Counted from the first letter of the stretch, positions 9,590-58,800 are shown. The stretch is DNA of 64,000 bases from Alphaproteobacteria bacterium UBA6178 (GCA_002422205.1 DITS01000033.1:4083-68082), one strand, 5' to 3'. Notes: generated from the sequence alone by a model not told the origin. Made by a program: numbers and translations.

Positions 9590-9618
9590 ATGAAGGTTGC
9601 GTGAAGATTTGATGAAGA
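9590..9618 (-). promoter_or_regulatory. Pho-box-like direct repeat (three half-sites) upstream of orphan 9087-9536
   Basis: In gene sense: TCTTCATCAAATCTTCAC followed by gcaaCCTTCAT, with 11-bp periodicity. TACATT lies 12 nt after the 18-mer. The box is 65 nt from the ATG. Confidence 0.5.
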
Positions 9619-9664
9619 TTCAATGTACTGGAATCGATCAGGGAAACATGCTACGCACAGCATT

Positions 9665-11410
9665 ATGACGGAAAAACTTACCATTGCGTGCGCGCAAATT
9701 AATCTGGTTGTTGGGGATGTTCCCGGCAATGTGGATGCGATTGCGGACTGGACGCGGCGCGCAGCAGCGCAGGGCGCGGATTTAATTATATTCCCCGAAA
9801 TGGCGATTACCGGTTATCCGCCGGAGGATCTGGTGTTTAAGCGTTCGTTTCAGCAGGCGGCGATGCGCGCGGTGGAGGAGCTAGCCAAAGAACTGGCTGA
9901 TTGCCCTACGGCGGTGCTGGTGGGCGGGCTTTGGCGCGAAGGGGATGCGGTTTATAATGCAACATTTTTGATAGAAGGCGGGGCGTGCGTGCATCGCCAG
10001 TTTAAACGCTCGTTGCCGAATTACGGCGTGTTTGACGAGAAGCGGCTGTTTGCTAAGGGCGAGCGGGCGGAGCCCGTGATGTGGCGCGGTGTGTCGCTGG
10101 GGATTTTGATTTGCGAGGATGTGTGGGACGAGCGCGGGCCACGCCAACTGAAAAAACATGGGGCGGAATTGCTGATTGTGCAAAACGCGTCGCCTTACGA
10201 GATGGGCAAGGCACGGCGGCGCAAGCATGTGGTGGATATGGCGGCGAGCCAAAATAATCTGCCGGTGATTTATTTAAATCTGGTGGGTGGTCAGGATGAG
10301 CTGGTGTTTGATGGCCGCTCATTTGCTGCGCATCCGGACGGAGCGGATGTGATGAAGCTGGCGGCGTTTGATGCGGAGCTTGGCATTACGCAATGGGAAA
10401 AGCAACCCAAAGGCTGGCGCTGTGTGCAGGCGCCGATGGAGGCCACGCCCGATGATTGTGAAACGATTTATCAGGCGATGGTGCTGGGCCTGCGCGACTA
10501 TGTGAATAAAAACGGATTTAAGGGCGTGGTGATCGGCATTTCGGGCGGGATTGATTCGGGCCTGAGCGCGGCGGTGGCGGTGGATGCGCTGGGGGCCGAG
10601 CGCGTGCGCGGGCTGCTGATGCCATCGCGCTATACGTCGGATGAGAGTGTGGAAGATGCGCGTGATTTAGCGCAGCGGCTGGGTTTTCGGCTGGATATGA
10701 TTGGGATTGAACCGGCGATGGCCGCGTTTGATGGTATGTTGCGCGAGGTGTTTGCGGGCTTAAAAGCCGATACGACGGAAGAAAATATTCAGGCGCGGAT
10801 ACGCGGAAATTTGTTGATGGCGATGAGCAATAAGCTGGGGTTCATGGTGCTGACCACTGGCAATAAATCGGAAATGTCGGTGGGGTATGCGACGCTCTAT
10901 GGTGATATGTGCGGCGGGTATTCGGTGCTGAAGGATGTGTATAAGACGACGGTGTATAAATTGTCGTGGTGGCGGAATCAGTGCTCAGAGTTCAGAGTTC
11001 AGCGTTCAGGAAGCGAAGGGCAGCAAACCCCCTCCTTAGTCCTCCCCCTGGAAGGGGGAGGGAGGGGTGGTGGTGGAGCGCCATTGATTCTGGCCGGCCC
11101 TGCGGGTGAAGTGATTCCTCAGCGGATGATTACGAAAGCGCCGACGGCGGAGCTGAAGGCGAATCAGAAGGATCAGGATACGCTGCCGCCTTATGAGCTG
11201 CTGGATGCAATGCTGATGGGGCTGGTGGAGCAGCGCTTGTCGGTGGATGAGCTGGTGGATCAGGGGTTTGACCGCGCGGTGGCGAATCAGGTCGCGCGCA
11301 TGGTCTATGTGGCGGAATATAAGCGTCGCCAGTCGCCGCCGGGGGTGAAAGTATCCGGCATGGCATTCGGGCGCGACCGGCGTTATCCGATTACTAATCG
11401 GTGGATATAA
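9665..11410 (+). CDS. nadE: glutamine-dependent NAD+ synthetase (CN-hydrolase + NAD synthase domains)
   Basis: MTEKLTIACAQINLVVGD..., FPEMAITGYPPEDL, GISGGIDSGL, and TKAPTAELKANQKDQDTLPPY. It contains an insertion of about 35 aa encoded by a repeat at 10984-11067. Confidence 0.93.
   Translation: MTEKLTIACAQINLVVGDVPGNVDAIADWTRRAAAQGADLIIFPEMAITGYPPEDLVFKRSFQQAAMRAVEELAKELADCPTAVLVGGLWREGDAVYNATFLIEGGACVHRQFKRSLPNYGVFDEKRLFAKGERAEPVMWRGVSLGILICEDVWDERGPRQLKKHGAELLIVQNASPYEMGKARRRKHVVDMAASQNNLPVIYLNLVGGQDELVFDGRSFAAHPDGADVMKLAAFDAELGITQWEKQPKGWRCVQAPMEATPDDCETIYQAMVLGLRDYVNKNGFKGVVIGISGGIDSGLSAAVAVDALGAERVRGLLMPSRYTSDESVEDARDLAQRLGFRLDMIGIEPAMAAFDGMLREVFAGLKADTTEENIQARIRGNLLMAMSNKLGFMVLTTGNKSEMSVGYATLYGDMCGGYSVLKDVYKTTVYKLSWWRNQCSEFRVQRSGSEGQQTPSLVLPLEGGGRGGGGAPLILAGPAGEVIPQRMITKAPTAELKANQKDQDTLPPYELLDAMLMGLVEQRLSVDELVDQGFDRAVANQVARMVYVAEYKRRQSPPGVKVSGMAFGRDRRYPITNRWI
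10984..11067. repeat. composite repeat (heptamer tandem CTCAGAG/TTCAGAG/TTCAGCG + CCCCCTCC...GGAGGGGG palindrome) inside nadE
   Basis: It has the same architecture as the intergenic copy at 1221-1273. It is translated in frame as SEFRVQRSGSEGQQTPSLVLPLEGGGRGGGG. Confidence 0.8.
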
Positions 11411-11433
11411 CTGATTATCATTTATCAGGCAGC

Positions 11434-12045
11434 TTATTTGCCAGATAAATAGCCTCTTACTATCGCTGCTTCATCATCTATGCTGCCGTGATGACGTGCG
11501 CCGTGTGGATGGGCCATAAGAGTGGGCTCATTCGGGATATCCAATTTAATTCGACGCGGCAGTTCTGCAATAACGGAGGCTTCGCCTGCTGTCATCGCAT
11601 TACATGCATCAACCACGCTATTGGCCCATTCTTCGGTTACTACTGATTTAGCGTCTTCAGGTGTTTGTAAGGGAATGGCACCTTGGGTTATGGCCGTCTC
11701 CACTGCTTTTGACATAATGAGTACATGGGCGATGCTGCGGGCTTTATTATAGGGATTATCTGGTTGGTTGATATACGCCACATCACCGTCAATACGTTTG
11801 CGCAGTGCTTGTAGCAATGGTTCTTTATCAAAACATTGTGGACTGTTTCGTATGGTGGCAATCCCTGCATCTTCTACCAGGCTGGCTAGTGTCTGATTCC
11901 AGTAGGTTTCAAGATTAATGGGAAAATTCCGATCATCGGTTTGTTGTTGTAACGGCGCCCATGTGTAACGCAGTAGTCTGCTTACAGCATCTGCTACAGC
12001 CTTTATATCTTTTAGCGTGATTGTATTGTCATTATTGTCGGTCAT
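11434..12045 (-). CDS. orphan hypothetical protein (203 aa)
   Basis: Long ORF convergent on nadE; no family recognised; preceded by the triple half-site box at 12106-12134. Confidence 0.6.
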   Translation of the reverse strand: MTDNNDNTITLKDIKAVADAVSRLLRYTWAPLQQQTDDRNFPINLETYWNQTLASLVEDAGIATIRNSPQCFDKEPLLQALRKRIDGDVAYINQPDNPYNKARSIAHVLIMSKAVETAITQGAIPLQTPEDAKSVVTEEWANSVVDACNAMTAGEASVIAELPRRIKLDIPNEPTLMAHPHGARHHGSIDDEAAIVRGYLSGK

Positions 12046-12105
12046 TGCGTTACCATTTATTTTGTTATTTGATGCTGCGCTTTAGCAGCTTTGGGGTATT
12101 ATTGT

Positions 12106-12134
12106 ATGACATAATGATGACATTTGCGTGACAA
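12106..12134 (-). promoter_or_regulatory. Pho-box-like direct repeat (three half-sites) upstream of orphan 11434-12045
   Basis: In gene sense: TTGTCACgcaaATGTCATcattATGTCAT. TACAAT lies 11 nt after the first 18-mer. The box is 61 nt from the ATG. Confidence 0.55.
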
Positions 12135-12225
12135 TCACGGAAAAAGCGGATTTTGCTGATATAGCCACTTGTTTCAACACGGGAAATTGTCTAAAACTCG
12201 GACTCCTTCAATGAAGAGAGTATGT

Positions 12226-13569
12226 ATGTCTGATGCTGTGAAAGTCCGTTTTGCCCCTTCTCCCACGGGTTATGTGCATGTGGGGAATGTGCGCACGGCG
12301 CTGATTAACTGGTTGTTTGCGCGTAAGGCAGGCGGGCATTTTTTGTTGCGCAGCGATGATACGGATCAGGCGCGCTCAAAGCCGGAATATGAAGCGGGCA
12401 TTCAGGACGATTTGCAATGGCTGGGGCTTGGCTGGGATAGTTTTGCCAAACAATCCGATTATTTTGAGGCCTACGCGTTGGCGCAGCAAAAGCTGGTGGC
12501 TGATGGGCGCTTATATGCATGCTACGAGACGCCGGAAGAGCTTGATATCAAGCGTAAGATGTTATCTAGCCGTGGCTTGCCGCCTATTTATGACCGCTCG
12601 GCACTGAAGCTGACTGATGCGCAGAAAGCGGATTTTGAGCGGGAAGGCCGCAAGCCGCATTGGCGCTTTAAGCTGAACCATGCGCCGATTGAGTGGCAGG
12701 ATATGGTGCGTGGCGCGGTAAAGTTTGAAGGACAAAATTTAGCTGATCCGGTGCTGGTGCGCGAGGATGGTGTGCCGTTATTTACGCTGTCGACATCGGT
12801 CGATGATGGGACGATGGGGATTACCCATATTTTGCGCGGCGAAGACCATGTGAGCAATACGGCGATTCAGGTGCAGATTATGGAAGCACTGGGCTATACG
12901 CCGCCAGTATTTGGCCATACGGCGCTGCTGCAAATGAAAGGCGGCAAACTGAGCAAGCGCGAGGGCGGCGGGGATATCCGTAGTTTGCGCGCGGATGGGT
13001 TGTTTGCGATGGTGGTGAATTCGTATCTTGCCAAGATTGGCACATCGGATGCGATTGCGCTTTATGAATCACTCGATGCGCTGGTGGAGAGTTTTGATAT
13101 TGGTAAATTTGGCCGCTCCACGGCCAATTATGACCCGGATGAATTGCAGCGGCTGAATGAGAAATTGCTGCATGGGTTGAGTTTTGATGCGGTGAGCGCG
13201 CAGCTTGATGCGCTGGGTGTGCGCGGTGTGGATGCGGACTTTTGGGAGCAGACGCGCGCTAATGTGTCGTCACTGGTGCAGGTAAAAGATTGGTGGGAAT
13301 TGTTGTATCAGCCGATTACACCAGTGATTACCGATGCTGGTTTTACCAATCAGGCGGCAGGGTTATTGCCGGAAGGCGAATGGGGTGAGCATAGCTGGAG
13401 CCAGTTTGTCGATGCGGTGAAAGCGCAAACAGGGCGTAAGGGCAAGGAGCTGTTTATGCCGCTGCGGTTGGCGCTGACAGGGCGCGAGGACGGGCCGGAG
13501 CTGGCGAAGCTTTTTGCGTTGCTGGGGCGTGAGAAGGCGCATAAGCGCTTGAAGGGCGAGGCGGCTTAG
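12226..13569 (+). CDS. gltX: glutamate--tRNA ligase
   Basis: MSDAVKVRFAPSPTGYVHVGNVRTA (HIGH region) and KLSKR (KMSKS region). The start is chosen at ATG 12226, after AAGAGAG. Confidence 0.95.
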   Translation: MSDAVKVRFAPSPTGYVHVGNVRTALINWLFARKAGGHFLLRSDDTDQARSKPEYEAGIQDDLQWLGLGWDSFAKQSDYFEAYALAQQKLVADGRLYACYETPEELDIKRKMLSSRGLPPIYDRSALKLTDAQKADFEREGRKPHWRFKLNHAPIEWQDMVRGAVKFEGQNLADPVLVREDGVPLFTLSTSVDDGTMGITHILRGEDHVSNTAIQVQIMEALGYTPPVFGHTALLQMKGGKLSKREGGGDIRSLRADGLFAMVVNSYLAKIGTSDAIALYESLDALVESFDIGKFGRSTANYDPDELQRLNEKLLHGLSFDAVSAQLDALGVRGVDADFWEQTRANVSSLVQVKDWWELLYQPITPVITDAGFTNQAAGLLPEGEWGEHSWSQFVDAVKAQTGRKGKELFMPLRLALTGREDGPELAKLFALLGREKAHKRLKGEAA

Positions 13570-13594
13570 TGGGTTTGTTGGTGAGAAAAGTGAA

Positions 13595-13671
13595 GGGGAT
13601 TCCCCTTAATCCGCTGCGCGGATTCGGGGAATGACGGCAAGGTGAGGGGCGCGGATTCGGGGAATGACAGG
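13595..13671. repeat. hairpin/direct repeats (GCGCGGATTCGGGGAATGAC x2, GGGGATTCCCC palindrome)
   Basis: The direct 20-mers lie at 13616-13635 and 13649-13668, between gltX and cysS. Confidence 0.75.
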
Positions 13672-15181: not shown

Positions 15182-15199
15182 TTGTCATAAAATCTTCAT
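15182..15199 (+). promoter_or_regulatory. Pho-box-like direct repeat upstream of orphan 15261-15767
   Basis: TTGTCATAAAATCTTCAT. CATAAT lies 12 nt downstream. The box is 62 nt from the ATG. Confidence 0.55.
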
Positions 15200-15260
15200 C
15201 CTATATTTAGCATAATCTCCTATGATTTCTGTGCAGTAAACATCCTTCGGAGCTAAAATT

Positions 15261-15767
15261 ATGGGCGTGGACCCTTCATCATTTATCAAGGCAGATCCTG
15301 AATTCAGGGGTGTTGAGGCTATTGTACAACGTCGTCAGAAGGCATGCACTTTGGCTATTGAAGCCGCTTTTAAATCAATGAAAGGTTATATGGCAAAACA
15401 TTCTTTGCCCGAGTTGGTAGGAGAGGTGAATGCCGAATTGTTAGTAAGGGGAATTAAGGACCGATACGGCGTAAATCTTATTGATGACAAGCCGATTCAG
15501 ATCGATTTTGAGCGGATAAAAACAATAGCGGAAGAGAGCGAAACAGGCTTTACAGGTGAAATGGTGTATAAAAAATTTCTGGGTCGTATGCAAGGCACGC
15601 TAGAAGCATTTAAGCGCGATTGCGCGGATTGCAATATTAGCGGAACGGTGGATGTGCAGGGTATGCAAGATTATGTAAACGAGATGTTTAGCCAAATGAG
15701 CCAAGCGGCTGCCGATGCTTCCCGAAAGTATGAGGCTAAGCATATTCAGCCGTTATTAGGCTACTAA
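15261..15767 (+). CDS. orphan hypothetical protein (168 aa)
   Basis: ORF with GGAG 9 nt before the ATG; no family recognised. Confidence 0.6.
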   Translation: MGVDPSSFIKADPEFRGVEAIVQRRQKACTLAIEAAFKSMKGYMAKHSLPELVGEVNAELLVRGIKDRYGVNLIDDKPIQIDFERIKTIAEESETGFTGEMVYKKFLGRMQGTLEAFKRDCADCNISGTVDVQGMQDYVNEMFSQMSQAAADASRKYEAKHIQPLLGY

Positions 15768-15814: not shown

Positions 15815-17398
15815 ATGAATAAAGACCGTATCTATTTATATGATTCGACCTTGCGGGATGGGGCGCAGGCGCGGGGGATTGATTTTACCGTGGCGGATAA
15901 GCAGGCTATTGCGCGCGAGCTGGATGCGTTTGGCATTGATTATGTGGAAGGCGGATGGCCGGGAGCAAACCCGACGGATGATGCGTTTTTTGCGGCGCAG
16001 CCCAAGTTGCGACATGCGGTAGTTACGGCTTTTGGCATGACGCGGCGCGCCGGACGCTCGGCCGAGAATGACCCGGGGCTGGCCGATGTGCTGGGCACCA
16101 ACACCAAATCGGTTTGTCTGGTGGGTAAATGTTCGGCCACACAGGTGGAGAAAACATTAAAGATTACCCGCGCGGAAAATCTGCGCATGGTGGCGGAGAG
16201 CATTGCGCATGTGGTGAGCCAGAAGCGGGAAGCGCTGTTTGACGCGGAGCATTTTTTTGACGGGTATAAAACCAATCCCGAATATGCGCTGGAGGTGGTG
16301 CAGGCGGCCTATGATGCAGGCGCGCGCTGGGTGGTGTTGTGTGATACTAATGGCGGGTCTCTGCCGCATGAGATCAGCCAGATTGTGACGGAAGTGACCG
16401 CCTATATTCCGGGCACGCATTTGGGCATTCATTGCCATAATGATACGGATAATGCGGTGGCGAATTCGCTGGCGGCGGTGCGAGCGGGCGTGCGGCAAAT
16501 TCAGGGCACGATTAATGGGATTGGCGAGCGTTGCGGCAATGCGAATTTAATTTCGCTGATTCCGACATTGATGCTGAAGCTGGGTTTTAATACCGGCGTG
16601 AGTGAGAAAAATCTGGCGCGCATTACGCAGATTTCGCGCATGATTGATGACCGGCTGAATCGTGATGGCAACCCGCATGCGCCTTATGTGGGTAGCGCGG
16701 CATTTGCGCATAAGGGCGGGCTGCATGTGTCGGCGATGGCGAAGGATTCGAGTAGTTATGAGCATATATCACCGGCGCTGGTGGGCAATGAGCGGGTGAT
16801 CTTGGTGTCGGACAAGGCCGGTAAATCGAATATTGTGACGCGGTTGAACCAGATGGGAATTGCGATTGAAGCGGATAACCCCAAGCTGAATGAGCTGGTG
16901 AAGGAAATTAAAGACCGCGAAAAACAAGGCTATGCGTATGATGATGCGGATGCGAGCTTTGAGCTGTTGGTGCGGCGACGGTTGGGCGATGTGCCGGATT
17001 TCTTCTCGGTGGAGAGTTTTCGTGTGATGGATGAACGGCGGCGCAATGCGAAGGGTGCGCTGGTAACCATTGCGGAAGCGACGGTGAAGCTGAGCATTCA
17101 AAAACGCGACGGGATGGTGATGGAAGTGGCGGAAGGCAACGGGCCGGTGAATGCGCTGGATGCGGCGCTGCGCAAGGCACTGATTCCGCATTATAAGAAA
17201 TTGCAGGGTATGATGCTTAGCGATTATAAGGTGCGGATTTTAACGCCGCAGGATGCGACCGCGGCACTGACGCGCGTGATGATTGAAAGCCGTGATGCCA
17301 AGCAGGTGTGGACGACGATTGGCGTGTCGCACAATGTGATTGATGCCTCGTTCAACGCGTTGTTTGATGCGATTACGTATATGTTGCTTAAGGGTTAG
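15815..17398 (+). CDS. cimA: citramalate synthase (LeuA-related, CimA type)
   Basis: 527 aa; YDSTLRDGAQARGIDFTV..., HCHNDTDNAVANSLAAV, and a C-terminal LeuA-dimerisation-like region. Confidence 0.8.
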   Translation: MNKDRIYLYDSTLRDGAQARGIDFTVADKQAIARELDAFGIDYVEGGWPGANPTDDAFFAAQPKLRHAVVTAFGMTRRAGRSAENDPGLADVLGTNTKSVCLVGKCSATQVEKTLKITRAENLRMVAESIAHVVSQKREALFDAEHFFDGYKTNPEYALEVVQAAYDAGARWVVLCDTNGGSLPHEISQIVTEVTAYIPGTHLGIHCHNDTDNAVANSLAAVRAGVRQIQGTINGIGERCGNANLISLIPTLMLKLGFNTGVSEKNLARITQISRMIDDRLNRDGNPHAPYVGSAAFAHKGGLHVSAMAKDSSSYEHISPALVGNERVILVSDKAGKSNIVTRLNQMGIAIEADNPKLNELVKEIKDREKQGYAYDDADASFELLVRRRLGDVPDFFSVESFRVMDERRRNAKGALVTIAEATVKLSIQKRDGMVMEVAEGNGPVNALDAALRKALIPHYKKLQGMMLSDYKVRILTPQDATAALTRVMIESRDAKQVWTTIGVSHNVIDASFNALFDAITYMLLKG

Positions 17399-18336
17399 CC
17401 GCACGTTTTTGCAGCAGCGAACATCTCATGGCTCAGGCTTGTAACCAGCGTGTCACGTTTACCGGCCAAGCGCGGGTTTATTATATTTGCCTCCTCGCCA
17501 AGAGAAATCTCTAGTTGTGTTAATGCCTGCACGAGATGAGGCGCGCTGATGCGCAACTGCGTGCTGCGATGCGCGGGCTGTTCGCTCTTGCTGGGCACCT
17601 CGAAACTTAGACCCTGCAAGATTTCTGCTACTTCGGGATCGGTATTTTCAGCCAGCAGAGAGACACTGCTCCGGAGTGCATTGGCAAGGGTTGATGCGGT
17701 ATTGGTGCTACCGTAAGAGAGGGTAATGGTTTCGGAGGCCTCTGCGTCGGCGGTGCAGGCCCGAATGGCGGAGCGGATAACATGCCCCAGCACTTTGGAA
17801 GGTTGTGGGGCAAGAAGCTTTTGTTTATCCACCGGATTACTCAAGGCCTGTATGATGCGCACAGAGCCGGAAGCACCGACGATGGACTCGATATTCGGCC
17901 AGTTCTGTTGATTCTGAATAAACGCCTGCATGTCTTCAACCCATTGCATCAATATTTGCGATGACAGACCGGGTATATTGTCTGGATTTAGTATGCTGCT
18001 TGGCTTGATAATGAGTATATCCGGCCTGCCTTTAATCTCTCGTTCCTTCAACGTGTGCCTCTCCGCCAACTCAATAATAAAATCTTTATGCACGAAATTA
18101 TTACCAATGCGCAGCAAATCGACCTTATTTATGATATTCTGAATGTCTTTCTGTTGCCGGTATCCACTGCCGTTGTTGCCCCCTTTGATGGGAATCATAA
18201 TAGCACAATCATTTATTTTACCGACATCGCGTAAAGATACTTCGCTTAGCAGCGTGATGCGCGCTGCATCGAGTATTTGTTGCAGCCCGGCAAGGATGGC
18301 CGGCGGTTCTTTTGTGAGTTTTTCTGCGTGGCTCAT
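17395..18336 (-). CDS. orphan hypothetical protein (313 aa)
   Basis: The start is set at MSHAEKLT (ATG 18336). The stop overlaps the cimA stop in TTAG. No family recognised. Confidence 0.6.
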   Translation of the reverse strand: MSHAEKLTKEPPAILAGLQQILDAARITLLSEVSLRDVGKINDCAIMIPIKGGNNGSGYRQQKDIQNIINKVDLLRIGNNFVHKDFIIELAERHTLKEREIKGRPDILIIKPSSILNPDNIPGLSSQILMQWVEDMQAFIQNQQNWPNIESIVGASGSVRIIQALSNPVDKQKLLAPQPSKVLGHVIRSAIRACTADAEASETITLSYGSTNTASTLANALRSSVSLLAENTDPEVAEILQGLSFEVPSKSEQPAHRSTQLRISAPHLVQALTQLEISLGEEANIINPRLAGKRDTLVTSLSHEMFAAAKTCG

Positions 18337-18400
18337 GGTGCTGTATCCGTGTTTTTTGTGGTGTTTGAGACAGACTAACCCTACAGATGGGGTAATGAAA

Positions 18401-18418
18401 GTGAAGGTTTTATGAAGA
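18401..18418 (-). promoter_or_regulatory. Pho-box-like direct repeat upstream of orphan 17395-18336
   Basis: In gene sense: TCTTCATAAAACCTTCAC, 65 nt from ATG 18336. It overlaps the ATG of the divergent trmJ-like gene. Confidence 0.5.
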
Positions 18419-26084: not shown

Positions 26085-27448
26085 GCTTTCCCCCGTTTCA
26101 GTCCGCGCATTTGCAGGGTGCTCACATCGGGTATTTTGGCGCCGTCTTCATGACGCAAAACCAGTACAAGCTGCAATCGGCATTCATCGTAGAATTTGTG
26201 AAATTGTTGCATCACCTCGTCACGTGACAGGGTGGGATGTTGTTGTTTGACCCGATCGACTATCTCATCGATGGAGCGTTTACCATCAATGGCTTCCAGC
26301 AGATCGGCTGTGGTTTCATGCAAGGTGAAAGTGACATGTATGGGATAATTAGGAAATGCGAAGGTGGCTTTTTCTTCTTTTGTATTTCGCATCACATTGG
26401 CTGTGTCTTTCGCTGTGCTAGGCGCAATGGCTGATACCATTGAAATACTCGGAATAAGTGATGTATCTTCAATTGTCAGCTCCTCAGGCACTGGCCCATT
26501 TGTCACATAAAATGTTTGTTTGCTGTTTAAACCAAATAGCAAATCAGCGACATGCTGCTGATCAGGAATGGGTATGGTTTTGGCCTGCGCCACAAATTCA
26601 GGATCAGTAATATGTATCGCGGGGTTCAGTAATACTTCCTGATGATTTTCGCCAAAAACAAATTCGGCGAAAGTGCCGCCACAATTTTTTACCCATTCAT
26701 AGGTTTGGGGGATGGTATAGGCGCGATCCTGCGTGTGCAGTAACAAATCAAAAATGCCGCTATCGCCGAAATGCAAAATGTCATGCATGGTATAGTTATG
26801 CATATGCCATAGCCAGTTACTCTCTGGTAAATGGTCGATAATGGTGCGCGCCAGATTTATTTGCTCATCAATGGGATCGTTTTTTTTATCAAGCAATTCA
26901 TTCAATAATGCTTGCATGTGGTAGATGCCGGTGCGGCCTGTTTGTGCGTAGACCATGACGCCCAATATGCCACCGGGTTTGAGTGCGCCGATTAATGTGC
27001 GCAACCCCTCATCGGGATCGGCCAGATGGTGCAGCACACCCGAGCAGCTAATGAAATCAAACTCACCCAAATTCAGTTTTGGAATATCGAGCAATGATTC
27101 ATTGAGGTAAGTGATATTGGTGAGGCCACGAATTTCAGCGCGTCTCTTGGCGATTGCCTGCGAGGCAGAGGACATGTCGAGCGAGACCACTTCGCCGCCG
27201 AATTCGCTGAGCTGTTCAGCCATAAATACGGATGCGTCACCGGTACCATCGCCTGCGCTTAACGCGCGGAAGCCTTTGAAGTTGGCGCGCCCACGATAGA
27301 AGCGATGATTCAAATAATCTAACCGATCAAAGAGTGTCACGCTCAGGCGTTTATATTCATCTTCCGCATCGCATGGCGGGTAGGGCAATGCTTCATATTG
27401 CTCGCGGACTTTGGGGAGGTAGTTGGGTGCGGTTGCTTGTTGTGCCAT
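26081..27448 (-). CDS. class I SAM-dependent methyltransferase with a C-terminal PqqD/RRE-like domain (paralogue A)
   Basis: Collinear paralogue of 24735-26084, with a 4-nt overlap. Its C-terminus reads TFTLHETTADLLEAIDGKRSIDEIVDRVKQQHP.LSRDEVMQQF. Confidence 0.8.
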   Translation of the reverse strand: MAQQATAPNYLPKVREQYEALPYPPCDAEDEYKRLSVTLFDRLDYLNHRFYRGRANFKGFRALSAGDGTGDASVFMAEQLSEFGGEVVSLDMSSASQAIAKRRAEIRGLTNITYLNESLLDIPKLNLGEFDFISCSGVLHHLADPDEGLRTLIGALKPGGILGVMVYAQTGRTGIYHMQALLNELLDKKNDPIDEQINLARTIIDHLPESNWLWHMHNYTMHDILHFGDSGIFDLLLHTQDRAYTIPQTYEWVKNCGGTFAEFVFGENHQEVLLNPAIHITDPEFVAQAKTIPIPDQQHVADLLFGLNSKQTFYVTNGPVPEELTIEDTSLIPSISMVSAIAPSTAKDTANVMRNTKEEKATFAFPNYPIHVTFTLHETTADLLEAIDGKRSIDEIVDRVKQQHPTLSRDEVMQQFHKFYDECRLQLVLVLRHEDGAKIPDVSTLQMRGLKRGKA

Positions 27449-30149: not shown

Positions 30150-30167
30150 CTGAATATAGCATGAAAA
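30150..30167 (-). promoter_or_regulatory. weaker Pho-box-like direct repeat upstream of orphan 29828-30094
   Basis: In gene sense: TTTTCATGCTATATTCAG, 56 nt from ATG 30094. Confidence 0.3.
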
Positions 30168-35824: not shown

Positions 35825-36715
35825 ATGCAACAGACAAAAAATATGGGCCTTTTTGCTAGCCTCATGGCCATTGGGGTGGCGTTGATATGGGGCGGTAATT
35901 TTGCGGCGTCGAAATATGCCTTGCTGCATTTCCCGCCTTTTTATGTGATCTTCATTCGCTATCTGTTAGTGGTCGTGCTGCTGTTGCCTTTTGCCCGACC
36001 CTCTGGATTGAAAAAATCACAACTATTTACGCTGTCCCTGCTTACCATATCGCTGCATTTTACTCTGGTATTTTCAGCATTATGGCTCGGGTTGAATATT
36101 GGTACCACGGTAGTCGTGATTCAACTGGGGGCGCCATTCAGTTGTTTGTTGGGTGTTATCTTTTTAAAGGACCTGATGGGACCGTGGCGTACCTTTGGTA
36201 TGGTCGTTGCGTTTATTGGAATTATCGTGGTGGCAGGCACACCGGAGGTAGCAGATAACTGGTTCGCATTTTTACTGGCAATAGCGGGGGCTTGTGCGTG
36301 GGCAGGCTCGAATGTGTATCTGAAGACATTGGGGTCAATACCGGTGGTGCCATTATTATTCTGGACGGGTTTATTTTCGTTGCCGCAAACGTTGTGTGTT
36401 TCGCTACTGATTGAACATAATCATATTGCATTGCTTCAAGCAGCGCCAGTAACTGCTTGGTTTGGAATTGTTTATAGTGCGGTATTTTCTACTATGTTAG
36501 GCTATGGGATGTGGTATTGGCTTTTGCGAAACTATAATGTGAGTCAGGTAACGCCGTATTCGTTATTGGTTCCGATTGGCGGGTTTAGCTCTGGCATTAT
36601 CTTTTTTAACGAGCAGCTTACTCTACATATGTTAATTGGTGCTGCCATTACGATTGCTGGTGTTGCGATTATTACAATAAGACGCCCCAAGCTGGTGCCG
36701 GCTCCGCGGGCTTAG
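35825..36715 (+). CDS. EamA/DMT family transporter
   Basis: About 10 TM segments, IWGGNFAASKYAL. The start is set at MQQTKN, downstream of the terminator; the ORF-track start is 35729. Confidence 0.8.
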   Translation: MQQTKNMGLFASLMAIGVALIWGGNFAASKYALLHFPPFYVIFIRYLLVVVLLLPFARPSGLKKSQLFTLSLLTISLHFTLVFSALWLGLNIGTTVVVIQLGAPFSCLLGVIFLKDLMGPWRTFGMVVAFIGIIVVAGTPEVADNWFAFLLAIAGACAWAGSNVYLKTLGSIPVVPLLFWTGLFSLPQTLCVSLLIEHNHIALLQAAPVTAWFGIVYSAVFSTMLGYGMWYWLLRNYNVSQVTPYSLLVPIGGFSSGIIFFNEQLTLHMLIGAAITIAGVAIITIRRPKLVPAPRA

Positions 36716-37596
36716 TGAAGGGAAATGGAGCCTTCCATATCACCGCTGTGACAACGGGTACGGATATAGTCTGCCACGCGATGCGATGCCTGTTTGAAAA
36801 GTGAGCTGGTCTGAACAGCCTGAGCGTAATTCGTATTGGGGTTATCAAAGAAGAATAACATCTTATAGGATTCCGCATGTCCGGGTAAGGCGGAATGGAT
36901 ATAGGCTTGCTGGGTAATGCCGGTAGTATTGCCCAGGGTGTAAGTCAATGCCTCGTGTAATAGCCAGAATGCCTTATTTAATATCGTTGGATCCATGGGT
37001 AAGTGGTCTAACGGTACGGCGATGCATAATTGATGTGCTGCGAATTGGGGCGTGACGGCTAAATCAGGGGCCGCTACTTCCAGTTTTTCGATCGGAAGAT
37101 ATTGCAGGCGCGCATAAAGCTCCGTTGTAACTGCCTGCAACGTTACCCGTTCTTGATCAGCCGTGGTGGTGGCAAAATTATTCAGCCGCTGCATTGTTGA
37201 GCGTGTTGATGGTTGGGACTTTATCGCGGCTAAACGTTCAATAATCTGAGGTATATACTGGCAGAAATTTATAATCTGCATCGGGTTTGCAGGATCAAAA
37301 TATAAGCGAACATGGTGATTATTTTCAGTATCGCTTTCTATGGTAACGGCATGCAATAAATCGGGACGTTCAGCGGAAATAGCCTGATTGAGGATTTCAT
37401 TGAGTTCACTCTCCTGATCAGAGGATAAGGCATGTGGCAGACGATAATCATGCAAAATTTGTCCTTTCGCTGTGACGATATGAGAGTGGGTTTGCCATGT
37501 CTTACAAATGGCAATGGCAAGATCAACCATATTATCAGCAGAATTGCTCGTCACATTGATTTCGGTATTGGGTTTTTTATCGGATGCGTCAGTCAT
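36712..37596 (-). CDS. orphan hypothetical protein (294 aa), distant paralogue of 37614-38510
   Basis: Lies 17 nt downstream of its paralogue. The stop overlaps the EamA stop in TTAG. No family recognised. Confidence 0.6.
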   Translation of the reverse strand: MTDASDKKPNTEINVTSNSADNMVDLAIAICKTWQTHSHIVTAKGQILHDYRLPHALSSDQESELNEILNQAISAERPDLLHAVTIESDTENNHHVRLYFDPANPMQIINFCQYIPQIIERLAAIKSQPSTRSTMQRLNNFATTTADQERVTLQAVTTELYARLQYLPIEKLEVAAPDLAVTPQFAAHQLCIAVPLDHLPMDPTILNKAFWLLHEALTYTLGNTTGITQQAYIHSALPGHAESYKMLFFFDNPNTNYAQAVQTSSLFKQASHRVADYIRTRCHSGDMEGSISLH

Positions 37597-37613
37597 ATCT
37601 TTTCTAAACTAAT

Positions 37614-38510
37614 TTAATGGGTGAGGGCGGACTGCATGTGCTCATCTTTATTCATATATAGCACTTTCCGCATGTATGTGCGGATTGACCGCGCGTTGTC
37701 CTGTATTTCTTTTCCTAATATTTCAGCGGCATGGCGATCATATTCATATTCGTTGGGTTTATGCGGATTGCACGCACGGATTTGAAAAACTAATTGTGGC
37801 GGGGTGCCGGTTTTAGGGTTGCCGGATGTGCTGGCAACCCTTTTATCCAGTTGCATGATATTGCTACCCAAAACACCGTGCAGGCTATTAAAGGCTAAAT
37901 TCAGGCTACCATCTAATATTTTCTCATCACTGGTCAGTTTCTCGAGCGGAATTCTGATGGTGAAAGACTGAGTGGGCGACACTGCGGCAGACTGCTTAAC
38001 AGATTGCTCGATGCAGGCGGTTTTTAACTCGTCGATTATGGTTAAAGTGTTGATATGCAGTTTATTTATAGTGATTTGTGAGTGGTGGGGCCTATAATCA
38101 TCCAGCCGATGCCAGGCATGCTTGCCTTCGGTGAGGGGTGGGGGCAATAAATCACGCAAATAAGACTTGATATCAGCAAGTGATTGCGCAACCGAAGTGG
38201 CGTCTGGTGTGATATGCAGCGTAAAATATTGCTTCTTATCTTTTCCTTCTCCGCTTCGATGCGTGACGGTGAGTGGTAGATGCAATGATTCAAAAGACTC
38301 ATTTAAAAGCCCCGCAATGGATGGGGACTCCTGTGCTGTAACATTCAGCGGTAATTCCCAATCAACGGCGTGGTTAGGGGATTGATCCTTGGCCATGACT
38401 CGCCAATCGGTACAGAGGCTCATTGCGGAATACAGCATGTGGGTAATGTTGGATGCTGATGCCGAGCCATATACGGTTAAGGACGGGGTGTTAGCGTTGT
38501 CTAATGGCAT
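37614..38510 (-). CDS. orphan hypothetical protein (298 aa)
   Basis: The start is reset to MPLDNANT (ATG 38510). The 402-aa ORF-track form would overlap the amidase gene and the upstream box. Confidence 0.6.
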   Translation of the reverse strand: MPLDNANTPSLTVYGSASASNITHMLYSAMSLCTDWRVMAKDQSPNHAVDWELPLNVTAQESPSIAGLLNESFESLHLPLTVTHRSGEGKDKKQYFTLHITPDATSVAQSLADIKSYLRDLLPPPLTEGKHAWHRLDDYRPHHSQITINKLHINTLTIIDELKTACIEQSVKQSAAVSPTQSFTIRIPLEKLTSDEKILDGSLNLAFNSLHGVLGSNIMQLDKRVASTSGNPKTGTPPQLVFQIRACNPHKPNEYEYDRHAAEILGKEIQDNARSIRTYMRKVLYMNKDEHMQSALTH

Positions 38511-38570: not shown

Positions 38571-38588
38571 ATGACAGTTTCGTGACAA
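38571..38588 (-). promoter_or_regulatory. Pho-box-like direct repeat upstream of the 38510-36712 orphan pair
   Basis: In gene sense: TTGTCACGAAACTGTCAT, which matches the E. coli Pho-box consensus at 15 of 18 positions. TACATA lies 11 nt downstream. The box is 61 nt from the ATG. Confidence 0.55.
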
Positions 38589-38603
38589 AGCAGGGATATT
38601 CCG

Positions 38604-39341
38604 ATGACATTGCCAGCGTTTATCCCGTGTCCTTCGCCTAATTTCGATGGGAGAGGCGACGCGCCGATTGAAAAGCTGGTGCTGCATTATACGGGCATGC
38701 CCAGCGGTGCAGAGGCGATAGCGCGACTTTGTGATGCAAAGGCCGAAGTATCTGCGCATTATGTGGTAGAAGAAGACGGGCGGATTTTTCAGCTGGTGGA
38801 TGAAAAAGAGCGGGCGTGGCATGCGGGCATTGCCTTCTGGCGCGGCTGCCGCGACATTAATGCGCGCTCAATTGGCATTGAAATTGTTAATCCGGGGCAT
38901 GAATGGGGCTATCGCCCGTTCCCTGAGGCGCAAATGCACTCGGTGCTGGCGCTGTGTCAGGATATCTTTGCGCGACACCCAACGATTATACCGCGTAGTG
39001 TGGTGGGGCATTCGGATGTGGCCTTCCGACGCAAGACAGACCCGGGTGAGCTGTTTGACTGGCGCTGGCTGGCCGCCCATGGGGTGGGGCTGTGGCATGG
39101 CGATCCGCCGCCCAAAGAGGTGCATCATACCCTGCAACGCGCCGATGCGGGCGAAGCGATACGGCAAATGCAGGAAATGCTGGTATTTTATGGCTATGGC
39201 ATGCCGGTGGACGGAATCTATTGTGATGTGACCGAGCTGTGTGTGCAGGCGTTTCAGCGGCATTTTCGCCCCTTGCGCATTGACGGGAAGTGGGATGGTG
39301 ACTGCGCGGCCAGACTTGAACATTTGTTAAAACTGCTGTAA
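38604..39341 (+). CDS. N-acetylmuramoyl-L-alanine amidase (Amidase_2, AmpD/AmiD-like) with a C-terminal peptidoglycan-binding domain
   Basis: LVLHYTGM, AWHAGIAFW, SIGIEIVNPG and GHSD; the C-terminus has a PG_binding_1-like region (IRQMQEMLVFYGY...VDGIY). Confidence 0.85.
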   Translation: MTLPAFIPCPSPNFDGRGDAPIEKLVLHYTGMPSGAEAIARLCDAKAEVSAHYVVEEDGRIFQLVDEKERAWHAGIAFWRGCRDINARSIGIEIVNPGHEWGYRPFPEAQMHSVLALCQDIFARHPTIIPRSVVGHSDVAFRRKTDPGELFDWRWLAAHGVGLWHGDPPPKEVHHTLQRADAGEAIRQMQEMLVFYGYGMPVDGIYCDVTELCVQAFQRHFRPLRIDGKWDGDCAARLEHLLKLL

Positions 39342-39349
39342 TCAGGCCG

Positions 39350-39816
39350 GACCAGAGGGTCGGATGGCTGCGGGAGGAAACTTCCGAGGAAAGTCCGGGC
39401 TCCACGTAGCAGGATGGCGGGTAACACCCGCCCGGAGCAATCCGAGGGAAAGTGCAACAGAGAGTAGGTTTCCTTTTTTGTTGTTTCCCGCTTCGGTCTA
39501 CTGACCGCCGCGATGAAACAGGCTCAAGGCTGGGTTGCGCATCTGCGCTCCCTTCTTGTTCCCCGTAAGGGCATTAAGGGTAAAAGTGAAAGGGTGCGGT
39601 AAGAGCGCACCGCGCATCTGGTAACAGATGTGGCATGGTAAACCCCATCCGGAGCAAGACCAAATAGGGGCTGGCAGTCTCATTCGTGAGGCTTCGTGTG
39701 CTGCGCACGGTGTATCAGCCCGGGTAGGTTGCTAGAGGCGGCGGGTAATCGCCGTTCGAGATGAATAGTCATCACCGCGCAAGCGGGACAGAACCCGGCT
39801 TACAGACCCTCTGGTG
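39350..39816 (+). ncRNA. rnpB: RNase P RNA (bacterial type A) with an expanded P12 region
   Basis: GAGGAAAGTCCGGGCTCC (39386-39403), AGGGTGCGGTAAGAGCGCACCGCG, GGTAAACCCCATCCGGAGCAAGACCAAATAGGGG, and ACAGAACCCGGCTTA. P1 pairs CCAGAGGGTC (39352-39361) with GACCCTCTGG (39805-39814). Confidence 0.9.
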
Positions 39817-40050
39817 AGGATTTTTGTGTTTGCTCCTGCTTCGGGCTACTGCCCTTCGCAATGAACCTAACGCCTTCGGCGACTGAAGGCTCGGTCTGCT
39901 GACCTCGCTCTTTATTCTTCTGTCATGCTGCGGGGCGCGGAGCGTCAGCGCAGCATCTCGCTCCACCTCATGATATCCTGCGCTCTTGCTGTGCAAGCCG
40001 CAGGATGACTACCTTGGGGTTGGGCTTGGTCTACTGACCTCGTGTTATTG
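39817..40050. repeat. cluster of repeats downstream of rnpB
   Basis: It contains a second copy of the rnpB-internal element (TTTTTGTGTTTGCTCCTGCTTCGGGCTACTGCCC...), further CGGTCTRCTGACC cores, and the palindromes ATGCTGCG..CGCAGCAT and ATCCTGCG..CGCAGGAT. Confidence 0.7.
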
Positions 40051-40066: not shown

Positions 40067-40358
40067 CTAGAGTTGTGGGCCACCTTTATTCGTAATCGGG
40101 AAAGCATTTAAGTACTCTGCCCAGCGATTAACTGGCATGCCGTTATTGGTATCCGGATGTATAGGTGCTTCGCCTTCATTATGTGTAAAGGTAGGGCCTT
40201 TGGGGGTGTAGTCAGGAATATCCGAGCCGGGCGAAGGGCCATGGGAAGCGGCATTCTCGCGTACAGCATCTGTCAATGGAGGTATGCCGCTAACACGTGG
40301 TCCATGCAATAAGATGCTCCGAAGGTGGAAGCGTAATTAAGGTCGAAGGCTTACTCAT
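40067..40358 (-). pseudogene. possible frameshifted orphan gene
   Basis: ATG 40358 sits 64 nt from the box at 40422-40439 and has GAGAGA upstream. It opens a 22-codon frame (MSKPSTLITLPPSEHLIAWTTC*). An 80-codon ORF in the +1 frame continues to 40067 but has only a TTG start. Confidence 0.3.
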
Positions 40359-40421: not shown

Positions 40422-40439
40422 ATGACGATTTGATGATGA
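40422..40439 (-). promoter_or_regulatory. Pho-box-like direct repeat
   Basis: In gene sense: TCATCATCAAATCGTCAT. TATATG lies 11 nt downstream. Confidence 0.45.
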
Positions 40440-54570: not shown

Positions 54571-54676
54571 AGTGGCTGGTGACTAGTGGCTAGTGACTAG
54601 AGAGTTATAATGTAGAAATGGCTAACAGCATTTTTTGTTTTTCTTTCTAGCTACTAGCCACTAGTCACCAGCCACC
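54571..54676. repeat. large inverted repeat with 7-bp-periodic arms (GTGGCTGGTGACTAGTGGCTAGTGACTAGAG ... CTAGCTACTAGCCACTAGTCACCAGCCAC)
   Basis: The arms lie at 54571-54602 and 54648-54676, filling the murB-ddl spacer. A related copy lies at 60711-60775. Confidence 0.8.
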
Positions 54677-56504: not shown

Positions 56505-56542
56505 GCAGCTATGACACTACTTGTACTGACGATTGAAACATT

Positions 56543-57805
56543 ATGAAGCACGAAGCCATCAGAGGACGCCCCGGTAGTGTGGCTGTGCTGGATATCGGCA
56601 CCACCAAAATTGTCTGTTTTATTGCACAAGTCGATGATGAGGGCGTGCTGCGTGTGCTGGGCGTGGGGCATCAGCTGGCCAAAGGCATTAAATCGGGTGT
56701 GATTACCGATGTGGGTGAGGTGGAAACCTCGATTGTGGCCGCCGTGCATGCGGCGGAGCAAATGGCCGGTGAAACGATTGAGAATGTGATTGTGAGCGTG
56801 AGCGGCACCAACATGCATTCGCGCAGTGTGACGGTGGAGCTGGAAGTGACCGGCGAAGGTGTCAGCGATTATGATATTGCGGATTTAATTCAGGAAGGCT
56901 GCGCCAGCTTAGAAGATGACGCGCATACGATTTTGCACGCGTTTCCGGTGCAGTATTATCTGGATAATGCCAAGGGGTTGGGCGATCCGCGCGGGATGGT
57001 GGGCGATGTGCTGGGCAGTGAGCTGCATGTGGTATCGGCGCGTAACAGCTATCTTAAAAACATGATTAATTGCGTGGCGCGGTGCCATTTGAATATTGAT
57101 GAATATGTGCTGGCCAGCCATGCATCGGCCCTATCGGTGCTGGAGCCGGACGAGATGGATTTGGGCGTGACGTTGATTGATATGGGCGGCGGCGTGACCA
57201 GCTTTACGGTGTTTGTCGGCGGCAAGAATGTGTACAGCGATTCGATTCCGGTGGGTGGTAAGCATGTGACGAATGATATTGCCAAAGGCCTGTCGACCAC
57301 GCTAACGCAAGCCGAGCGACTGAAAACGATTCATGGCAGCGCCATCGGGTCGGTGAAGGATGCCGAGGTGATGATTGAAGTGCCGCAGCTGGGCGAAGAA
57401 GAAGACGAAGATGATGTGAATATGATGCCGCGCTCGATGCTGGTGGGGGTGGTGCGGCCGCGGATGGAAGAAATTTTTGAGTTGATTCGCGCCAAGCTGG
57501 AAGCGGCGGGTGTGGATAAGGTGGCGGGACGGCGCTGCGTGATTACGGGCGGGGCCAGCCAGATGATCGGCGTGAGTGATTTGGCCGCGCGCATGCTGGG
57601 CAAACAGGTGCGCAAAGGTAAGCCGCATGCGGTGCCGGGCTTGGCGGATATGGCGAGCGGGCCGGCATTTGCCACGGCGGTCGGCATGCTGGAATATGCC
57701 ACCAAACGCCCATGGGAAGATGTGCTGCTGCGCGGCTCATCCGTGCGCGGCGGGCTGGCGCAGACGAAAGAAAAAATCGTCAACTGGTTCAGAGAGAATT
57801 TTTAA
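56543..57805 (+). CDS. ftsA: cell division protein FtsA
   Basis: VAVLDIGTTKIVCFI, and LIDMGGGVTSF. Confidence 0.95.
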   Translation: MKHEAIRGRPGSVAVLDIGTTKIVCFIAQVDDEGVLRVLGVGHQLAKGIKSGVITDVGEVETSIVAAVHAAEQMAGETIENVIVSVSGTNMHSRSVTVELEVTGEGVSDYDIADLIQEGCASLEDDAHTILHAFPVQYYLDNAKGLGDPRGMVGDVLGSELHVVSARNSYLKNMINCVARCHLNIDEYVLASHASALSVLEPDEMDLGVTLIDMGGGVTSFTVFVGGKNVYSDSIPVGGKHVTNDIAKGLSTTLTQAERLKTIHGSAIGSVKDAEVMIEVPQLGEEEDEDDVNMMPRSMLVGVVRPRMEEIFELIRAKLEAAGVDKVAGRRCVITGGASQMIGVSDLAARMLGKQVRKGKPHAVPGLADMASGPAFATAVGMLEYATKRPWEDVLLRGSSVRGGLAQTKEKIVNWFRENF

Positions 57806-58717
57806 TTAGCGGGTGGCAACAGCCGATGTCCCTGTACCACCGCTCTCAATTTGCAATAATTCGTTCGTTTGACTGGCATAATGTTTGCCCATATGGCCGG
57901 CCAGCTCCGTAAATTGCTCTTCGGTTAGGTGGGTTTTCCAGCCTGTGCTAACAAGCAATTGATAAACGCCATAAGCCACTGTGGCTACGATACCAATATT
58001 AAGCCCACCATTAACCATGCTTTCTACAGTTGTGTGTGGTTCTTCGTCAGAGGGTTTCAGGCCATATGCTGCAGCAGCAATCACCGCTGCTCCACCTGCT
58101 TTTAAAAACGCACGGCGTCGCATGGTATCCCGTGCTTCACCCGGTAATTCATTGCCTATGGGAAAGCCGGTTTTTACACGATTGTCATATTTATCAGTGC
58201 TACCAAACCCATCATAATTAAGCTTATGCAGTCTAATTGCGAAGCTTTTTTCGGCTCTACGAATCGCGTTTCTGACTACATCATTATAGTCTCTTTTAAT
58301 ATCAACGTTTTCGCCAGCGGCGACAGCCTTAAAAAAGGACATCAGCTCTTCAGCATTCTGCTGGAAACGCTCATTGGCTAAGCCCGCCATTTTTCGGTTA
58401 AGGTTATATTCAGGATCCTTTAGATGATCTGTGCCATAAGGATAATGAATTTGCAAATCAGGATTATCTGAAATTTTTAGCTTACTAGAAACGCCGTCGG
58501 TTGTGTTTTCATCATAAAATCGACGGGCATCAATTTCCAAATGCTCAAATGCCATGGCTACAATATAAGGAAAGGCGTATGTCTGTATAAGCGTTTTGGG
58601 GTCTTTGCGTAGCGGATCCTTATCGGCCACATAGTTGACCATACTATCAGTTACAACATCATATAATTGGTTATGCGCCTTATGCAATTCTGTATTACTA
58701 CGCGTTAATTGTGGCAT
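57806..58717 (-). CDS. orphan membrane protein (303 aa) inserted between ftsA and ftsZ
   Basis: Its stop (TTA 57806-57808 on the plus strand) abuts the ftsA TAA. It has two hydrophobic segments about 20 aa apart near the C-terminus (AFLKAGGAAVIAAAAYGL / GLNIGIVATVAYGVYQLLV). No family recognised. Confidence 0.65.
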   Translation of the reverse strand: MPQLTRSNTELHKAHNQLYDVVTDSMVNYVADKDPLRKDPKTLIQTYAFPYIVAMAFEHLEIDARRFYDENTTDGVSSKLKISDNPDLQIHYPYGTDHLKDPEYNLNRKMAGLANERFQQNAEELMSFFKAVAAGENVDIKRDYNDVVRNAIRRAEKSFAIRLHKLNYDGFGSTDKYDNRVKTGFPIGNELPGEARDTMRRRAFLKAGGAAVIAAAAYGLKPSDEEPHTTVESMVNGGLNIGIVATVAYGVYQLLVSTGWKTHLTEEQFTELAGHMGKHYASQTNELLQIESGGTGTSAVATR

Positions 58718-58782
58718 TGTGTGTCCCCATAATTAAAATTTAAAATCCGGTCTTGTATTAGCTGATTAAAATAAACCATAGT

Positions 58783-58800
58783 GTTAATTATTTATGAAGA
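58783..58800 (-). promoter_or_regulatory. weaker Pho-box-like site upstream of orphan 57806-58717
   Basis: In gene sense: TCTTCATAAATAATTAAC. The first half-site is identical to those at 9601 and 18401. TATTTT lies 10 nt downstream. The site is 66 nt from the ATG. Confidence 0.3.

Follow-up and report, generated by a model that had tools for sequence, protein, structure and literature searches.

A conserved 11-bp-period direct-repeat box precedes fast-evolving orphan genes in an alphaproteobacterial genome region and may be the site of an OmpR/PhoB-family regulator

Examination of a 64,000-nucleotide (nt) stretch of DNA from Alphaproteobacteria bacterium UBA6178 (the window, to which all counts refer unless stated otherwise) revealed an 18-bp direct-repeat element, here termed the box, that lies at a nearly fixed distance upstream of genes lacking any Pfam match (orphans) and that is retained in related genomes while the genes behind it diverge. 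The box comprises two 7-bp half-sites with a period of 11 bp, and three or four half-sites are sometimes present in phase. We consider it probable, at roughly 0.65, that the box is the site of an OmpR/PhoB-family winged-helix response regulator controlling the orphan set. The nine box-led units, which are fast-evolving and lineage-restricted, probably form one co-regulated set.

The consensus of the box is a-TTGTCAT-mAAA-nCTTCAY, with information limited to ~20 bp and no conservation in the flanks. In all strong boxes, every half-site has C as its third base, and the TCA core is invariant. Nine strong sites had been listed in a preliminary description of this DNA, and each was found again at its position and on its strand (Table 1). 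A search with the consensus from that description, allowing up to three mismatches, gave 9 matches against 1.59 expected, a number reached in none of 100 shuffles. The enrichment proved to be specific to one spacing. KTCAY-N6-KTCAY occurs 14 times as opposed to 1–5 times at each other spacing, and in the 6,960 nt of intergenic DNA TCAY-N7-TCAY occurs 14 times as opposed to 0–5 times at other spacings (1000 shuffles: mean 0.93, maximum 4), whereas the 10 matches to the latter pattern in 57 kb of coding DNA represent no excess. This result bears out the earlier proposal of two 7-bp half-sites 11 bp apart, an architecture of the OmpR/PhoB type. Additional half-sites are also in phase, exactly 11 or 22 bp off, with three half-sites at 9590–9618 and 12106–12134 and a GTCAY 22 bp upstream of the boxes at 23880 and 38571.

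A scan with a position weight matrix (PWM), which had been suggested for the whole genome in the preliminary description, was run on the window with a matrix trained on its nine strong sites. Ten matches of at least 19 bits were returned, against 0.08 expected from Markov simulations, and all were intergenic. A clear gap in score separates these from the next-best match (15.4 bits, at 1843 inside an algH-like open reading frame (ORF) and treated as chance) and from the remainder, which score 12 bits or less. Leave-one-out scores of the nine sites ranged from 9.9 to 27.7 bits.

Association of the box with genes was assessed in a curated set of 65 genes, 16 of them orphans and 49 annotated, by calling a box at 15 bits or more on the gene's own strand and 20–150 nt upstream. 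A box was found before 9/16 orphans and before 0/49 annotated genes (Fisher p = 3.6e-7), in keeping with the earlier claim that housekeeping genes lack it; the envelope genes of the window (soluble lytic transglycosylase (SLT), ampD, bamD, lpxC, and the division and cell wall (dcw) cluster) are among those without a box. Three further orphans (19820, 21386, and 36712) are second genes behind a boxed gene, bringing the number in box-led units to 12. All strong boxes are co-directional with the downstream gene, and in the order of Table 1 their 3' edges lie 64, 60, 61, 64, 68, 77, 46, 60, and 63 nt from the ATG, seven of the nine values falling between 60 and 68 nt. An orphan-directed box near a fixed distance, as first described, therefore holds for the nine strong sites, at 46–77 nt. 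All four divergent intergenic regions (at 9.6, 12.1, 18.4, and 38.6 kb) have a box that faces the orphan and points away from nadE, gltX, trmJ, or ampD.

The 10 kb that adjoins the window on its left contains two more boxes (locus L103, 16070–17327, ~5–6.5 kb left of position 1 and in the opposite orientation). One of these precedes a stand-alone receiver-domain protein, so the putative regulon includes a signaling component. From window position 40,439 to the leftmost of these boxes, the density amounts to ~12 boxes in ~43 kb; boxes are absent from the final 24 kb of the window and from the adjoining 7.9 kb. Two weak sites in the preliminary description gained no support, that at 30150 scoring 6.1 bits at a non-canonical distance and that at 58783 scoring 7.5 bits; the latter may be a decayed box.

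Syntenic contigs of relatives were recovered with LeuA and AmpD as anchors (loci L017, L018, L101, L102, L105, L106, and L107). Boxes occur at the same five promoters in L017, whose LeuA is 89% identical, and before the Gly-zipper genes and the orphans adjoining nadE and cysS in L018 and L101 (LeuA 76%). Weaker boxes precede the orphan pair adjoining ampD in L105 (14.7 bits) and L107 (10.3 bits), at the same position as the box at 38571. The L017 orthologue of the promoter at 12106 retains the downstream pair of half-sites, GTCATcatcttGTCAT. The oriented, promoter-proximal element of the preliminary description is thus not only upheld in the window but also conserved in relatives. By contrast, the box-led proteins of the window and L017 share only 22–56% identity, and the syntenic orphan pair of L105 is 24% identical or undetectable although its AmpD is 78% identical. 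In alignments of the upstream regions, the box and the -10 hexamer appear as conserved islands amid diverged DNA. That the box survives while the downstream gene diverges argues for purifying selection on the box itself.

The metagenome-assembled genome (MAG) GCA_022763105.1 (L102 and L106; LeuA 75%) has the same housekeeping genes lying contiguously, with neither these orphans nor boxes between them, which implies that box and gene are gained or lost together. The single box of this MAG, a weak one, stands 51 nt ahead of an orphan that separates purL from purQ. As a negative control, 766 kb of distant LeuA loci (at most 69% identity, among the matches listed) yielded 2 matches of 19 bits or more.

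The position of the box relative to candidate promoter elements was examined at 23 sites from the window and relatives. TAnnnT hexamers peak at +21 to +24 from the box (13 sites), with a minor mode at +10/11 (4 sites). Conserved -10 candidates lie 21–23 nt past the box at 15182, 18401, 19260, and 20439. The full arrangement at 19260 is kept in L017, L018, and L101, and a promoter scan independently returned TTGAGA-17-TACACT; at 20439 the box is kept in the same three relatives, and its distance to the downstream -10 hexamer is exactly 22 nt in each of the four genomes. Counterparts of the 15182 promoter have TATAAT at +21 (L017) and TAGGAT at +22 (L101), and the L017 counterpart of the 18401 promoter has TACAAA at +22. 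At 19260 and 20439, the box would span about -52 to -35 and abut the -35 hexamer, and the same is probably true at 15182 and 18401. A +10/11 geometry is possible at 9601, 12117, 23880, 38571, and 40422.

The preliminary description had the box replacing the -35 element. The hexamers that it placed 10–12 nt past the box do exist, and such a geometry is possible at the latter five sites. The four conserved promoters, however, have the box against the -35 hexamer (at 15182 and 18401 probably so), and the hexamers listed there are not the ones kept in relatives. In the conserved promoters, -35 hexamers are mostly poor; together with a box upstream of -35, this is typical of activator-dependent promoters. 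A promoter for an alternative sigma factor was rejected, because the box has two identical parts 11 bp apart and a separate -10 hexamer after them.

Oriented 11-bp direct repeats, in-phase extra units, and a place at the upstream edge of the promoter constitute a signature of the OmpR/PhoB family. The motif, its enrichment, orientation, fixed position, restriction to orphans, and conservation are observations; from these we infer the family of the binding protein, the sign of regulation, and co-regulation. The following minimal model can be envisaged. A head-to-tail regulator dimer would fill both 11-bp repeat units; promoters with a third or fourth half-site in phase would bind a larger oligomer. 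Abutting or overlapping the -35 region, the regulator would activate otherwise weak sigma-70 promoters. The units so controlled would encode lineage-restricted, very fast-evolving proteins, mostly soluble and acidic but including one Gly-zipper membrane cluster, and would be interspersed among the housekeeping genes of one uncultured alphaproteobacterial clade, in which box and gene come and go jointly.

Several observations count against this model. No response-regulator gene with a DNA-binding domain was found in the ~82 kb of genome sequence read or in the related loci. Four orphans (22905, 29828, 57806, and 61908) have no supported box, so that the earlier statement that a box precedes almost every orphan is true of 12 of the 16, counted in box-led units, and fails for these four. 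The promoter geometry also varies: four promoters have their -10 candidate at +21 to +23, and five have it at +10 to +11. L018 contains two intragenic PWM matches of 18.2 and 18.6 bits (7452–7469 (-) and 13304–13321 (+)), inside leuA and the 3' end of purL, which exceed chance expectation for 17.7 kb; they may be inert or may be left over from box-gene modules since lost. Finally, the PWM learned from the very sites that it then scored in the window, a circularity that is mitigated by the sites in relatives and by the leave-one-out scores.

The Pho box has also been described in Sinorhizobium and Caulobacter. The boxes might be true Pho boxes, bound by PhoB under phosphate limitation, with the orphans forming an expanded Pho regulon. 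In register, the local consensus TCAYmAAAnYKTCAY conflicts nowhere with the Pho-box core TCATAAAACTGTCAT, a 7-bp repeat is followed by a 4-bp A-rich tract, tandem extra units lie 22 bp off as in pstS-type promoters, and at five sites a -10-like hexamer 10–11 nt downstream reproduces the classical Pho geometry. Nevertheless, the Escherichia coli consensus CTGTCATA(A/T)A(T/A)CTGTCA(C/T) with up to three mismatches matches only 38571 and the intragenic site at 1843. Typical boxes depart from it at 4/18 positions, the downstream half-site being mostly CTTCAY rather than CTGTCAY, and in four promoters the conserved -10 hexamer lies one helical turn further away. In addition, profile searches gave no phosphate-related family match in any target gene, and ~12 boxes in ~43 kb is a high density when set against the 47 genes of the whole Caulobacter PhoB regulon (PMC11208175). 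Of the Pho-box resemblance proposed earlier, the architecture and in-register compatibility stand, whereas PhoB in particular is at most partly supported: the Pho consensus recovers one box, and the cre tag and CenR sites come comparably close. We regard the Pho reading as doubtful.

It is unlikely that CenR or a close paralogue binds the boxes and that the orphans encode envelope-related accessory proteins, even though the four conserved promoters share with CenR targets 11-bp-period direct repeats directly upstream of -35. Single sites can be near-identical, as in TCACGCAATCTTTAT (RSP_1465) and TCACGCAACCTTCAT at 9590, and one boxed cluster encodes Gly-zipper membrane proteins. The second half-site is, however, TGA in 24/31 CenR sites as opposed to TCA in 12/13 here, most boxed proteins have neither a signal peptide nor a transmembrane segment, and, as noted above, the envelope genes of the window are unboxed. 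The ~82 kb read contained no pst, pho, tol, cenR, surA, or msrA gene. The box consensus reads as intermediate, with a Pho-like upstream half (TTGTCAT), a cre-like downstream half (CTTCAY), and CenR-like geometry in the conserved promoters. Two other candidates were rejected: the CtrA box, because TTAA-N7-TTAAC has 0 matches in the window and the third base of the half-site is C, and ChvI sites (GCC-N8-GCC or TTGC-N3-GCAA), which are unrelated.

The sign of regulation might alternatively be negative, the box being a repressor operator that silences costly or toxic accessory genes. In both promoters with three half-sites, the third runs into a -10-like hexamer (TCAT-TACATT and GTCA-TACAAT), where a bound protein would occlude RNA polymerase, and OmpR-family regulators are able to repress from promoter-occluding positions (PMC9275681). 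Against this, the conserved promoters have the box upstream of a mostly poor -35 hexamer, and strict co-direction and a fixed upstream distance are hallmarks of activation in this family, which leaves repression quite improbable. A further possibility, that each orphan was brought in by a mobile cassette of which the box is the scar or end, or by recombination at the box, is hardly credible. Box and orphan are indeed jointly present or absent among relatives, and small intergenic repeat families are plentiful in the genome. The shared sequence, however, extends over only ~20 bp, without longer common flanks and without a counterpart at the far end of the genes, the box is always 5' with a promoter-like distance to the ATG and a fixed relation to the -10 hexamer, and its survival beside a diverging gene points to purifying selection on the box.

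Under the preferred reading, an OmpR/PhoB-family regulator would control genes whose products belong to no recognized family. Ten orphan proteins tested against Pfam, NCBIfam, PADLOC, and PHROGs gave no meaningful match. A DarT identity for 36712–37596 was rejected, the match being weak both in Pfam (19.6 bits) and in NCBIfam (16 bits, where the cut-off is 150). When the 313-amino acid (aa) orphan was used as the query of an exhaustive HMMER search against 1.84 billion representative proteins, only the orphan itself and one relative, at 34% identity, were returned. All-against-all BLAST revealed no paralogy among the orphans other than weak Gly-zipper similarity, and a single-sequence AlphaFold model had a mean predicted local distance difference test (pLDDT) score of 53.6, too poor for a fold search. 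Outside the Gly-zipper cluster (19.3–21.8 kb), which carries transmembrane segments, the orphans are acidic and soluble-looking, lack a signal peptide, and mostly lack a transmembrane segment. No secretion system, signal peptide, or family match was found to back a role in host interaction or phosphate stress, and these roles, raised in the preliminary description, remain speculation.

Table 1. Boxes of the window and its left flank, with scores from the PWM, downstream units, and associated promoter elements. Distances run from the box to the ATG.
Feature	Position	Strand	Sequence	Score (bits)	Downstream unit	Distance to ATG	Other elements
Box, three in-phase half-sites	9590–9618	-	TCTTCATCAAATCTTCACGCAACCTTCAT	26.8 and 21.2	149-aa orphan (9087–9536, -)	64 nt past first pair	Points away from nadE (other strand)
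Box, three in-phase half-sites	12106–12134	-	TTGTCACGCAAATGTCATCATTATGTCAT		203-aa orphan (11434–12045, -)	60 nt past last half-site; 71 nt from upstream pair
Box	15182–15199	+	TTGTCATAAAATCTTCAT	29.1	168-aa orphan (15261–15767)	61 nt	Conserved -10 candidate TATGAT (15221–15226)
Box	18401–18418	-	TCTTCATAAAACCTTCAC	26.8	313-aa orphan (17395–18336, -)	64 nt	-10 candidate TAGTCT (18372–18377)
Box with -35 and -10	19260–19306	+	TCGTCATCAAACCTTCAT (19260–19277)	28.0	Gly-zipper genes (19346–19819, 19820–20404)	68 nt	-35 TTGAGA (19278–19283), 17-nt spacer, -10 TACACT (19301–19306)
Box with -10	20439–20484	+	TTGTCATAAAAGCTTCAC (20439–20456)	26.5	Gly-zipper genes (20534–21376, 21386–21817)	77 nt	-10 TATTAT (20479–20484)
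Box with upstream half-site	23880–23917	-	CCGTCATAAAATCGTTAC (23880–23897)	22.5 (leave-one-out 15.1)	140-aa orphan (23411–23833, -)	46 nt	In-phase GTCAC 22 bp upstream (23913–23917)
Box with upstream half-site	38571–38608	-	TTGTCACGAAACTGTCAT (38571–38588)	23.4	Orphan pair (37614–38510, 36712–37596, -)	60 nt	In-phase GTCAT 22 bp upstream (38604–38608)
Box	40422–40439	-	TCATCATCAAATCGTCAT	25.9	Only a 22-codon ORF (40290–40358) and an 80-codon TTG ORF	+63 (22-codon ORF)
Candidate degenerate box	58783–58800	-	TCTTCATAAATAATTAAC	7.5 (without statistical support alone)	303-aa orphan (57806–58717)	Exactly 65 nt
Left-flank box				17.8	185-aa orphan	46 nt
Left-flank box				17.5	151-aa stand-alone receiver-domain (CheY-like) protein	56 nt

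The unit behind the box at 40422 could be a small gene, a frameshifted gene, or a non-coding transcript. An RNase P RNA (class A, 299.5 bits) is located at 39352–39818 (+), and this box is oriented toward it. The 303-aa gene at 57806–58717 (-), which has no family match, lies on the opposite strand between ftsA and ftsZ and breaks an otherwise canonical dcw cluster.

The window, from an uncultured alphaproteobacterium, lies within a 178-kb metagenomic contig (ENA ERZ27315062 k141_197374) and is present also in JGI 3300001605. The sequence read (~82 kb) consisted of the window and ~17.7 kb of flanks, the right flank being reached via LpxC. Gene content is typical of the class Alphaproteobacteria, with a dcw cluster in which murB stands between murC and ddl, a 558-aa FtsZ, the ATPase inhibitor zeta subunit, electron transfer flavoprotein (ETF), and purSQL genes. 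The closest named relatives are MAGs labeled “Rickettsiales bacterium,” and a TrmJ probe search found no close relative among GTDB species representatives, with a best identity of 37%, two of the peptide probes having fallen in a repeat-derived insertion peculiar to this trmJ. The G+C content of the window is ~54%. Its GC skew stays strongly positive from end to end (+0.09 to +0.29, calculated over 2 kb at a time), which places the whole window on a single replichore. Housekeeping genes are mostly on the plus strand, and 7/9 boxed units are on the minus, that is lagging, strand. Third-position G+C is generally lower in orphans than in housekeeping genes, and the orphan pair at 36712–38510 sits in the part of the window with the lowest G+C content (36000–38000; 45.5% compared with ~54%).

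The trmJ (SpoU methylase) ORF at 18412–19257 contains an in-frame insertion of ~45 aa (~18720–18860) that is not present in four relatives and that coincides with two copies of a palindromic repeat (18729–18758 and 18782–18813). A repetitive extragenic palindromic (REP)- or miniature inverted-repeat transposable element (MITE)-like element thus appears to have inserted in frame into this housekeeping gene. PWM matches at 18729–18814 were rejected as boxes, since they are members of a palindromic repeat family. Short palindromes repeated in intergenic DNA fall into several families, TTAAGATTCCTGCTTTCGCAGGAATGAC and AGGCCGGACCCCGTCATGAAGACGGGGTGACA being examples, and are located at 2574, 14741, 15102, 30531, and 52133; at 18782, 27472, 30325, and 30439; at 8096 and 24337; at 7133–7220; and at 54572–54675. 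Tandem runs of the heptamer CAGAGTT occur at 1227, 10986, 19020, and 30255, and an exact enumeration of 4-mer dyads was uninformative because it was dominated by heptamer tandem repeats. A 31-nt tandem repeat is present at 22747–22839, with a related copy at 39937–40020. Between bolA and purL, 24735–27448 (-) holds two paralogous genes of ~450 aa for S-adenosylmethionine (SAM) methyltransferases, one with a weak PqqD-like C terminus; the paralogues share a 300-nt repeat (72% identity) and are absent from the syntenic regions of L018 and L106.

The box provides a handle, readable from DNA alone, on genes that have escaped annotation. It groups at least nine transcription units (12 orphans of the window), two units just outside, and the counterparts in relatives into one testable regulon, and the regulator and its signal, if found, would place this group of unannotated genes in a physiological setting. 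Here a box is conserved while the coding sequence behind it diverges extremely fast, a clear instance of regulatory DNA that outlives the gene under its control; the case may be useful to work on the recruitment of accessory genes into signaling circuits that already exist. A broader and decidedly tentative conjecture is that a single dedicated master regulator of the OmpR/PhoB type governs a large, hyper-variable set of orphans in this clade, as a free-living or predatory counterpart of PmrA regulons. The orphans would be inserted singly between housekeeping genes, chiefly on the lagging strand, and would turn over at such speed that similarity between syntenic copies is lost to detection. 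If this were true, the box could be used to search genomes for a whole class of interaction or surface proteins as yet undescribed, and it might act as a portable promoter module that helps newborn or acquired ORFs to be expressed.

No new regulatory principle is involved; what distinguishes the present case is the local density of boxes, the exclusive link to orphans, and the persistence of the box beyond the sequence of the gene. The Pho box consists of two 11-nt direct repeat units, each of CTGTCAT followed by an A/T-rich tract (PMC4415409). The box described here shares with it two 11-bp units (7 bp conserved and 4 bp A/T-rich), an invariant TCA core, in-phase extra units, and a co-directional, promoter-proximal place. 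It differs in its place, which in the four conserved promoters is ~11 bp upstream of the classical pho position, and in its targets, which are orphans rather than phosphate-acquisition genes. Sites of Rhodobacter sphaeroides CenR, T[GC]AC-N7-TGA, are co-directional and lie directly upstream of the -35 hexamer in 28/31 cases (PMC9275681). The 11-bp period (TGA-N8-TGA), the co-direction, the place upstream of -35 (here in the four conserved promoters), and the alphaproteobacterial host are the same in both systems, but the CenR regulon consists of conserved envelope genes whose products have signal peptides, whereas the targets here are clade-specific and mostly cytoplasmic-looking.

The cre/blr tag of CreB/BlrA, TTCAC-N6-TTCAC (PMC4689548), has the same pentamer and spacing, and the sites at 9590, 9601, and 18401 match it with one mismatch. 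The window contains 0 exact matches, however, and with one mismatch there are 5 matches (three of them real boxes) as against 3.5 expected, no excess over chance for the pattern as such; moreover, the upstream half is usually GTCAT here, and no creD-like target was seen. To our knowledge, CreBC has been described only in Gammaproteobacteria. The parallel with PmrA-controlled regulons drawn in the preliminary description is a fair analogy in logic, although neither sequence nor membership is shared. As in the PmrA-controlled Dot/Icm regulons of Legionella and Coxiella, one OmpR-type tandem repeat stands at a fixed place before many scattered, poorly conserved accessory genes, so that the motif can serve as a tag for the gene set. 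The PmrA site is TTAA-based, in contrast to the TCA core of the box, and no genes for a type IV secretion system, effector-family matches, host association, or translocation signal are evident here; it is in the arrangement of one oriented repeat before a dispersed accessory gene set that the two systems are alike.

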